A DNA stretch of 63,901 nucleotides, counting the filler, from Perkinsus chesapeaki ATCC PRA-425 (Eukaryota; Protista; Perkinsozoa): NCBI GenBank assembly GCA_013115145.1. It is 7 parts of 7 records of this genome, joined end to end, with 100 filler letters (N's around TTAATTAATTAA, not from the genome) between each part and the next. Parts side by side here need not be neighbours in the genome. Positions count along the whole stretch, not along the records: positions 48,467 to 54,444 come from JAAPAO010001112.1; 6 more parts are not named here. One strand, written 5' to 3'. This document shows, piece by piece, positions 48,467 through 51,416 of this stretch (positions are counted from its first letter, which is position 1; the number at the start of each line of letters is the position of its first letter). The notes below the pieces were generated by a model. That model saw nothing but the letters and a program-made list of their open reading frames with translations, was not told the DNA's origin and did no database searches. Made by a program: the position numbers and the translations under genes.

Positions 48467-50072
48467 CAACGCTGAACTCGGCGTCGGTGTATATGGTTAT
48501 GATTTCCTGGTCGATTCCAAGAGGGATTCTGCGTCTTGGGCAGTTGTCCAGGGCCCACTCGAACCAGGTGAGGGCTCTTGCTATGGGGTGGCCTTCTGTG
48601 AATGCTGGTGGTCCCCCAGCCGCTCTATCATAGAGAGCGCGGAGGTATGCCCTCCCATTCTTTCCCCAAAATGCCGTCCCCGCGAAGCCCAGTTTACCAG
48701 CCAGCTTTGAACTTCGGGTACTGCTCAGTCGCCCCTGCTTGAGGACGTCTCGGATTTCACTTTTAAGTTTGCTGCGGCGGTCCTCATCGATCCCCATGCT
48801 TATGTGTGATGGGGAGATGTGTAGCTCTATGCCGAGCAGCTTGCCGTGGGGCGTGGGGTCCATCGTTTTCTCATGTTTGATTTGGAATCTCAGCATGTCG
48901 TTCACTCGTTTGAATATGTCTTGGCATTGGTACGCGTGCTCCACCGGGCACAGTGTGTAGTAGTCGTCAACATAGGCCAACAAGGGGATCTTCATGATGT
49001 TCCTCAGTATTGAACATACTGCCCTCCCTACTCTGGTGTAGTGCAGCATTGACCCCCGGGCTCCGAAGGGTAGCCGTAGGTGGATGAAGAATGCCTGGTG
49101 CTGGGCCGCGGGCGTGACCTGGCTGGTACGTGGCACAGGGAGGCGTATTGATGCCACCGAGTAGTCCTCGGGGGATATTGGGAATTGCCGGTAGGCATCC
49201 CGGTGGTCTCCCCGCCATAGCAGGTACTGGCGGTGTGTGACGTTGAGGGCTTGGTCAGCCTTCCTCGCCGTGTGCGCTAGTGCTATCAAGCTGTCGATAT
49301 CGTCCAGGTACAGTCGTTCGTTGATCTGGCACATGTCATTGACTGTTGACTTGGTCAGGTCGTCTATCGCCCTGACTTTAGTAGGTTCTGGTTTTGGGAA
49401 GCGGTGGCTGTAGAGCCATTTCCCCCCGAAGACCCTATCCATCTCGCTCTCATTAAGAGGTCCTAGCAGTTTTCTGCTAGTGACGTCCTCGTTCGCTTGC
49501 TTCCAGAGTACTTCTGTGTAAGGGCCCTCCGTCTGTTCCCTTCCCCTCGCCATCTCAGCCCTCTTGTGTTGCGCCTCCGCCAGCGCTTCGTCTTTGTCAA
49601 TGTAGGTCTTGTGCTTATCGTGTTTTGGGGCGTACACTCCGTTGCTTGATAGGTCTCCGGTCAGGCGAAGGCCTCTCGCTATCTCGTCTGCGAGGGTATA
49701 GTCATCATGGCCCGCTTCTAGGATCATGGCAGCGAGAAGGGCTAGATTCATATGCTGTGTTGCCGGCTTGACATGCTCAGGAGCGTTCGCAACAATATTG
49801 TCGTTGCGGGAGAGTATTTCGGGACTTTGGGCCAGGGCTTCCCATTGCAGGATGGCGGTCTCCCTCTCTTGCTGTATGGTGGAGTCGTTCTCTGCTATGT
49901 AGTGTAGCAGGGCAGTGAGCTCCCCATTGTCCCGTTCCGCTGCCATATTAGGTATGGGCGTCCGTCTGGCCTCATCCATGTGTCCCAGTATTTGGGTTAG
50001 CCTTTCCCCGTCTAGTCCCTGGGTGCCCCCGGGGTCGAAGAGGGTGTGTTCTGCGGGGCCCCCGCATAACCG
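48467..50072 (-). CDS. Pol (RT-RNase H, partial) of element 2, in frame with gag
   Basis: The frame is open from the codon after the gag TGA through RT (YVDD) to the linker; first ATG at 49979. Confidence 0.9.
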
Positions 50073-51416
50073 TCAGTATTTCCCCTGCTGGGCTGGGGCC
50101 TTTGGGGTAATAGTTGGTTGATTGGCGTTTCTGTTTGCACCGCCCTGTGGAATGTATGGTTTTCCGGGAGTTGCGCCACTTTGGGTGGGCTTGCCGGCAT
50201 CCTGGATTTGTTGGGGGAATCTGTGCTGAGCCGTGCCGTGGAATTGTGATCTGCATATCCCGCATCTGTGGTGGTACTTGCACGCGCCGGCCAGTTTTGG
50301 GCATCCTCGTTGTCCGTCCTTGCTGAAGCCGATGCAGAGGCCCTCTTTCATCGCTATGTCACGCCACCCCTGCGGCGTTCTAGTCGCCATTTGCCCTCCC
50401 GTTTGTCCGCCGCGCCTCCTTGAGAGCCCTCGGGCTTGGTCAAGGGATTGCCAGTCCAGCGCAGTCTGCTCCCCCGGCAGCTTGGCCCAGCTTTCTGCTA
50501 GAGAACGGGCGGCCCATCTTTTGCGGACTACCGCATCGTAGTGGACAGCTACTGTCCACCCATCGCTTGCAGCGACCCTCAGTACTGTGTTTGTGTACTG
50601 CAGCATCTGTGAGACACTCCACGTGCCTGTTAGCACGTACGCTATGCCCATGGCTTGTATGGAGAGTGTGTGAGGTACTCCCGGATCTTGGTTTGACGCC
50701 ACCGACGGTGGGAGGAACTTTTTGAGCTCTACGAAATCTGTCAGCACCCCTTTCTTACTTTTTCGTTTGAGCCCTAGTAGTCGCTTCATGGTTTGCTTCG
50801 GTGGGAGCAGCTCCGGGTCCAGTAATCCTATGCTTTCCTTTAGCTCTTGTAGTCGGTTTGCGATGGCTTCATCGGCCTTGTCCTCCTCCTCTTCCTCTCC
50901 CGCATTGAGGATCTGCGTAACGAACTTGCGGAGGAAGTTCTTGCCTTGGTCGTTCCCAGTTCCCTCGTCGGTCTCTGGCCTGTGCCCTCGGGGGCTCCTT
51001 GATCTCGATCTCGATCTCGATCTTGAGCTTGGCGTAGTGTGGGACACGTCAGTTCTTTGTAGGCTTGTGATAGGCTGTGGTGCTGCCGTTAGTGGTCTAG
51101 TGTTGACCCAGGCCTTGATCTTCGTGGTAAGGAGAACTGCCTGTCTCTGGCTTAGCTTGGGGAGGAGTTCCTTGCACTCAGCTGCGGTCGTGATTTGAAG
51201 CAGCATTTCGCCGTCGATGCCTTTTAGGTCGTCCTTCAGGTCAGTATCCTTTAAGAATGGCAGAGCACTGATTATTTGCTCGACCTCGATCTCGGTGCTG
51301 GTATGTTTGACTGGGCCCAGCCCTGTGATCGCTAGTGCCGTCGTGTTTGGCTGAGCTGACGGCGGTGGAGGGGGCAGTTGTTCTATATTAGCAGCCGAGA
51401 AGGTAGGCAAGGTCAT
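50073..51416 (-). CDS. Gag-like ORF1 of element 2 (SAM-like N-terminus, RS tract, CCCH + CCH fingers)
   Basis: GIDGEMLLQIT..ECKELLPKLS.RQ..LL..KIK (SAM-like), SRSRSRSRSP and CIGFSKDGQRGCPKLAGACKYHHRCGICRSQFH. Confidence 0.85.
   Translation of the reverse strand: MTLPTFSAANIEQLPPPPPSAQPNTTALAITGLGPVKHTSTEIEVEQIISALPFLKDTDLKDDLKGIDGEMLLQITTAAECKELLPKLSQRQAVLLTTKIKAWVNTRPLTAAPQPITSLQRTDVSHTTPSSRSRSRSRSRSPRGHRPETDEGTGNDQGKNFLRKFVTQILNAGEEEEEDKADEAIANRLQELKESIGLLDPELLPPKQTMKRLLGLKRKSKKGVLTDFVELKKFLPPSVASNQDPGVPHTLSIQAMGIAYVLTGTWSVSQMLQYTNTVLRVAASDGWTVAVHYDAVVRKRWAARSLAESWAKLPGEQTALDWQSLDQARGLSRRRGGQTGGQMATRTPQGWRDIAMKEGLCIGFSKDGQRGCPKLAGACKYHHRCGICRSQFHGTAQHRFPQQIQDAGKPTQSGATPGKPYIPQGGANRNANQPTITPKAPAQQGKY

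Follow-up and report, generated by a model that had tools for sequence, protein, structure and literature searches.

A UGA-separated gag–pol junction in a Ngaro-like retrotransposon of Perkinsus chesapeaki is consistent with stop-codon readthrough

Retroelements in which a stop codon separates gag from pol are already known among LTR elements and retroviruses (MuLV, Tca2, Tj1/Tosmo). According to the sections of the cited works covered here, Tj1, Tosmo1-3 and Tcry1 (10.1101/2022.12.06.519325) as well as Candida Tca2 (PMC2194720) carry gag-UGA-pol in one frame, the same arrangement that we find in an element of the protist Perkinsus chesapeaki. Tj1 and Tosmo continue TGA-CT, and the Perkinsus copy likewise reads UGA-C; they hold a strict 8-nt context, however, whereas the clade of the Perkinsus element holds UGA alone (10.1101/2022.12.06.519325). 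In further contrast, Tj1, Tosmo1-3, Tcry1 and Tca2 are LTR elements with protease and integrase (10.1101/2022.12.06.519325, PMC2194720). The same preprint, in the part considered, ranks UGA as the most readthrough-permissive stop and UGA with G at +4 as not a leaky context. MuLV (gag-UAG-pol) and the Sindbis-type UGA-C combine a stop, a short spacer and a 3′ structure, and the Perkinsus copy also has C at +4. In contrast to MuLV, which requires a pseudoknot after its UAG, it offers a 6-bp stem with a 3-nt loop that is energy-insignificant and unconserved (MuLV and Sindbis as summarized in PMC2194720). On its own, the similar-looking junction of Tca2 failed to direct readthrough when placed in a yeast reporter (PMC2194720), which calls for caution regarding the Perkinsus junction.

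By its domains, the Perkinsus element is closest to Ngaro. In the parts of the sources covered, Ngaro elements of Cafeteria burkhardae (PMC8547959) and of fungi (PMC3783388) share the order gag, RT/RNase H, tyrosine recombinase, and this order as defined in PMC3266345 and PMC3783388 fits the Perkinsus olseni protein P0158, the most complete relative of the element, which shows no methyltransferase, protease or DDE integrase. Unlike the Ngaro elements of PMC8547959 and PMC3783388, which have separate or overlapping ORFs, gag and pol here lie in one frame across one UGA; PMC3266345 describes Ngaro elements as usually without ORF overlaps and lists DIRS1-like sequences for P. marinus. The covered text of PMC8547959 and PMC3783388 gives no route by which the second ORF of DIRS-order elements is translated. 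We found no description of gag–pol readthrough in the order DIRS by full-text literature searches or within the covered portions of PMC3266345, PMC8547959, PMC12477816, PMC6681497, PMC3783388, PMC7192593, 10.1101/2021.08.05.455354 and 10.1101/2022.12.06.519325; the first 300,000 characters of PMC5009743 mention neither DIRS nor Ngaro.

The element and its gag–pol junction

The window, i.e., the whole stretch of DNA analyzed (63,901 nt), is built from several contigs, separated by 100-nt N linkers that contain TTAATTAATTAA (28214, 48367, 54445, 57889, 60615, 61747), and adjacency is not implied. The element's contig covers positions 48467-54444, with the 3′ half of the element absent. All features of the element lie on the minus strand. 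A gag-like ORF1 of 447 aa (50076..51416) opens with the ATG at 51416, in a frame without stops across 51473-50076, and ends in a low-complexity Q/P/G/N tail. Read directly, the junction is ...GGG AAA TAC TGA CGG TTA TGC GGG GGC CCC GCA, with a single TGA (50073..50075) in frame between gag and pol and CGG as the next codon. It is followed by 31 open codons (49980..50072) up to the first pol ATG at 49979, which is codon 32 past the stop. In an alignment with 17 relatives, the conserved N-terminal pol motif starts with a His, which in the window is codon 31, one residue before Met32. Pol ORF2 (48468..50072) comprises the conserved N-terminal region, the reverse transcriptase and the start of RNase H, at which it is truncated by the contig end. 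Its frame is that of gag and stays free of stops between 50072 and 48467, where the contig ends. The end of gag at 50075-50073 and the same-frame passage into pol are thus exactly as the earlier note had read them, and the reading frame bears out its 31 stop-free codons before the first pol ATG and onward through RT.

Over 982 codons of the element we count one TGA, no TAA, no TAG and 14 TGG, the TGA being the sole lesion of the window copy. In three DNA runs (X1-X3; two studies), each a possible source of this DNA, Logan contigs cross the junction with 0 differences from the window; hence, the TGA is not an assembly error. In the reads the element looks nearly single copy, and no second copy of at least 80% identity across the junction occurs among the matches listed.

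We classify the element as a Ngaro-like tyrosine-recombinase retrotransposon (order DIRS), judged by its domains and those of its kin. The window pol matches RVT_1 (Pfam E 1.2e-7) and carries the YVDD of reverse transcriptase at 48974-48963. RNase H begins at the contig end and aligns with Perkinsus relatives that run on into RNase H (RT_RNaseH is found in P0014); the contig stops inside this domain, before any recombinase or methyltransferase position. The nearest proteins to the element are Perkinsus hypothetical proteins. Gag ORF1 matches no Pfam family at cut-off but is homologous to P. olseni and P. chesapeaki proteins at 30-93% identity, and its translation shows a Cys/His zinc-finger cluster near the C-terminus (CCCH-like, then CxxC..H; 50223..50336). 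At the equivalent Gag position, relatives match zf-CCCH Pfam models with E 2e-5 to 7e-4, under curated cut-offs. A gag-profile search, covering fused forms of up to 935 aa, gave only three Perkinsus models; the representative search had no length limit.

In P0158, RNase H runs into a tyrosine-recombinase-like part. This C-terminal part matches Phage_integrase-bearing Atlas clusters at 0.97-0.98, is homologous to the ORF after pol in the related locus L009 (E 1e-20) and weakly matches XerC (E 0.036); a PDB sequence search with P0158 gave no match. Neither protease nor integrase is matched in the five relatives scanned, nor is a methyltransferase (Dam) in Perkinsus relatives, which end soon after RNase H or enter the recombinase. 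The assignment to the order DIRS in the earlier note is supported by the RT/RNase H pol and by the lack of a protease or DDE integrase match, and a recombinase is present in relatives. Scans of viral contigs found no relatives. Terminal repeats are absent from the window contig and from the five loci scanned, which are mostly partial. Upstream of gag lies a multi-copy repeat (51606..51747) that many contigs match before diverging, and its summed depth is ~10-fold or more over the element body. This repeat is a candidate 5′ terminal (A) repeat of the element and may act as such. Rfam gives no match in 49900-52400, this repeat included.

Several further features of the window were recorded. AT-rich 27-nt tandem repeats occupy 52101-52343 and 28314-28421. 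The contig at 61848-63900 has inverted repeats of 152 nt (91%) at its ends, with arms of 113 nt inside them; it lacks a long ORF and looks like a non-autonomous DNA transposon. An intronless frame of 344 codons at 46608-47642 (plus strand) encodes four RanBP2-type zinc fingers (Pfam E 1.6e-11). At 44400-46300 (minus strand) lies a gene split by introns, pieces of which, by their motifs, we take to resemble importin alpha.

Frame, stop and coding constraint in related loci

A scan of metagenome contigs yielded 15 marine loci with 26-31% identity to the element. The conservation of the window's junction is judged on relatives at this distance, the Perkinsus relatives being predicted proteins. 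Junction counts use 12 of the 15, as the sequences of L007 and L015 begin within pol and L013 repeats a portion of L014 that lacks the gag end. In 12 of 12, the stop on the gag side is TGA, and gag and pol share one frame across it in 11. The frame is uninterrupted from the TGA as far as the RT motif in nine loci (L001, L003, L004, L006, L008, L009, L010, L011, L012). Two more, L005 and L014, keep the frame across the junction and shift later; the conserved His motif of L005 sits in the gag frame, and L014 aligns with the linker of L004. L002 has gag and pol out of frame. L012 has just two codons upstream of its stop, and the gag-side stretch present in L010 contains no zinc finger. By clades, window counted, gag and pol share a frame in 7 of 8 (P 0.003 if the null chance of a shared frame is 1 in 3), a value weakened by shared descent among the loci, since kin are not fully independent; clades come from a quick tree used only to group near kin and built from relatives alone. 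As far as these alignments tell, the frame has outlasted sequence, most linkers being too divergent to align. Thus, TGA and frame are both kept in homologues, where the earlier note had proposed to look, and out-of-frame gag and pol, which it regarded as speaking against readthrough, are confined to one of the 12 loci.

Linkers of 68-225 codons are open in the relatives, whereas their shuffles are open in 0.8-25% of trials; for the 30-codon linker of the window, shuffles are open in 49%. TGA serves as gag stop in 11 of 11 lineages vs. as pol stop in 3 of 8 of these elements (Fisher p 0.005). In L001, positions 3-4664 hold a gag-frame ORF of at least 1554 codons with no Pfam match.

These observations bear on the possibility that the TGA is a nonsense mutation in the formerly single gag–pol ORF of a dead copy. 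As the element is near single copy, no sister copy rules against this directly. The TGA, however, sits precisely at the boundary of the Gag tail and the conserved start of pol and is the sole lesion in 982 codons, and a TGA stands at the junction in all 12 related loci that reach it. Moreover, of 142 hits bearing an RT, only three Perkinsus gene models show a zinc-finger-like motif upstream of it in one chain. The nonsense mutation is thus largely refuted already, and we consider it very improbable.

Judged by its substitution pattern, the stretch following the stop evolves as protein. In the 93 codons ahead of the first Met, L008 and L009 differ by eight synonymous and three replacement changes (pN/pS 0.13, p 0.001). 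The same tendency is seen in the other two pairs (p 0.05), and L011 has a 12-nt in-frame insertion in this stretch. L004 and L014 are identical at 33 of 57 residues from codon 13 past the stop, score 132 in frame vs. 70 and 51 in the other frames, and differ mostly at third positions (26 vs. 17 and 14). No frame is preferred in L006/L012, and the preference in L001/L003 is weak. In the L008 family, synonymous changes begin at codon 37, which leaves room there for an intron over the first codons.

L008, L009 and L011 contain a second in-frame TGA-C inside RT, at codon 368-372 past the gag stop and in a Trp/Cys-like position. Past it, the ratio of synonymous to replacement changes is 4:0 for L008/L009 and 2:0 for each of the other two pairs. 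This shared codon, with only synonymous changes behind it in L008/L009, is what would be expected if UGA were partly sense in these hosts (an ambiguous nuclear code), such that no element-specific programming were needed. Yet the window element uses TGG for all 14 of its Trp codons and contains a single TGA, 3 of 8 relatives use TGA to end pol, and the three loci are near-copies that may share one old lesion. An ambiguous code therefore appears highly unlikely.

The position of methionines limits initiation downstream of the stop. For L001, L003, L004, L006 and L012, the alignment places the first in-frame Met at window residues 74, 97, 68, 190 and 202, respectively, i.e., 37-170 residues inside the conserved pol region. 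Hence, an AUG start after the stop cannot yield a whole Pol in these five loci. In L009 and L011 the first Met stands at 36, in L010 it precedes the conserved motif, and window Met32 is not kept in the Perkinsus relatives P0011 and P0158. A separate Pol could arise from a downstream transcript, made by an internal promoter or spliced-leader trans-splicing, from reinitiation at Met32 or from a non-AUG start. Spliced-leader trans-splicing occurs in Perkinsus. The AUG 31 codons past the stop would cost only the first residue of the conserved motif, and Tca2 provides a precedent with a minor promoter in its junction, according to the covered part of PMC2194720. Given Met32, separate initiation is most plausible for the window copy. 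Against it, the Met is not conserved and lies deep inside pol in the five relatives above, and no such route requires a shared gag/pol frame or a TGA. We therefore regard a separately made Pol as rather improbable.

Context and structure downstream of the UGA

Six nucleotides after the stop, the window carries the GC-rich hairpin TGCGGG-GGC-CCCGCA (50052..50066) with 6 bp and a 3-nt loop, present at 50066-50052 as the earlier note had described it. With predicted pair probabilities of 0.82-0.88 in context, it likely forms. A perfect 6-bp hairpin starting 5-9 nt past a codon is uncommon in the element, with 14 cases among 962 codon positions (1.5%; criterion set post hoc). Folding energy after the stop is no better than that of shuffles over 33 nt (z -1.0), 83 nt (z -0.26) or 123 nt (z -0.25). 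The earlier note had further proposed a pseudoknot from the adjacent G/C runs, for which the case is weak, since a loop of just 3 nt cannot seed one. In a simple scan with no energy model, the top H-type candidates are incompatible with the hairpin and require first loops of 18-20 nt, and 3 of 100 mononucleotide shuffles score as well.

The relatives do not share this signal either. CGG after the stop is confined to the window (1 of 11 lineages), so that neither CGG nor CUA is conserved, and the +4 base is C in four, G in six and A in one of the 11 lineages. Two of the 11 have a comparable hairpin of 6 bp at a distance of 4-15 nt from the stop, at a background of 3-7%, and the fold z falls below -2 only in L003 and L012. 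We find no conserved 3′ stem with covariation support, the linkers having diverged too far to test for covariation. Among the relatives, L003 has the best structure, a strong stem-loop directly after its gag TGA (2398-2437; z -4.0 over 40 nt). With CGG in one lineage and the hairpin in two, the alphavirus-like combination of UGA-CGG and hairpin is not borne out as the signal.

UGA alone is constant across the clade, and this comparison suggests that a general stimulator is probably neither the local codon context nor a proximal stem. For the window copy, the C at +4 and the hairpin may raise leakiness. The residues RLCGG encoded after the stop were also considered as a ubiquitin-like LxGG cleavage site and rejected, as the motif recurs at this position neither among the 169 proteins scanned nor in the loci.

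Splicing, readthrough and their implications

Alternative splicing could drop the stop in a share of transcripts and thereby fuse gag to pol. Public gene models contain such a step: P0010, P0003, P0011 and P0158 join gag to pol, P0003 and P0158 visibly omit sequence at the junction, and P0010, the P. chesapeaki model, equals the element's locus minus 30 codons across the stop, for which a GT..AG intron of 90 nt (50051..50140) is assumed in the model only. The host is also intron-rich, as transcript-like contigs (runs X6, X7) support three GT..AG introns of 61, 47 and 41 nt in window 37179-37948. Run X6 has no match to the element, which carries no information on its expression. In addition, the stop lies inside a donor-like G|GTGAG in 4 of 11 lineages (L006, L008 family, L010, L012). 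These donor-like sites (L006:1748, L008:476, L010:509, L012:9) could also serve a second spliced product, e.g., the recombinase. Gene models, however, have to bypass a stop somehow and need not rest on RNA. The assumed intron, 90 nt long with 58% GC and 3 T in its last 20 nt, differs from the three real ones (n=3 only), which span 41-61 nt with 39-43% GC and 6-11 T. C rather than G precedes the TGA in the window, so that no donor overlaps its stop. Moreover, an intron explains neither the kept gag/pol frame, nor the long open linkers, nor the TGA-only stop. Taken together, we judge splicing unlikely.

The single frame, the open and constrained linker, the missing AUGs and the choice of UGA are accounted for by readthrough. 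On the sequence evidence, we give a probability of roughly two in three that pol is made as a minor Gag-RT-RNase H fusion by ribosomes reading through the UGA. Most ribosomes would halt at the UGA and release Gag, while a few would insert an amino acid via a near-cognate tRNA and continue into pol. Rare readthrough would yield a high Gag:Pol ratio, and the fusion would tie RT to the Gag particle, allowing co-packaging. Against readthrough stand the out-of-frame L002, the G at +4 in 6 of 11 lineages and the lack of a shared stem and, in the window itself, the short linker and the AUG directly after the conserved His. The earlier proposal of programmed readthrough giving a Gag-RT-RH fusion therefore persists in part: in-frame continuation (11 of 12 loci, coding constraint) speaks for it, while its hairpin/pseudoknot signal does not stand.

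LTR elements and retroviruses are known to use this strategy, so that the surprise is moderate. If true, stop-codon readthrough would be added to a retrotransposon order for which we have found no description of it so far, and public Perkinsus gene models that bridge the junction by an intron may be wrong. It is a more doubtful and tentative extension that a wide clade of tyrosine-recombinase retrotransposons in protists, reaching from Perkinsus as far as uncultured plankton, produces Pol by reading through UGA without any local context or proximal stem in common. If this were true, the clade would use a readthrough stimulus of an undescribed kind, be it a long-range RNA contact, an element-encoded factor or UGA leakiness of the host, and in the last case the leakiness would have to be strong enough to tolerate the second UGA inside RT of the L008 family.
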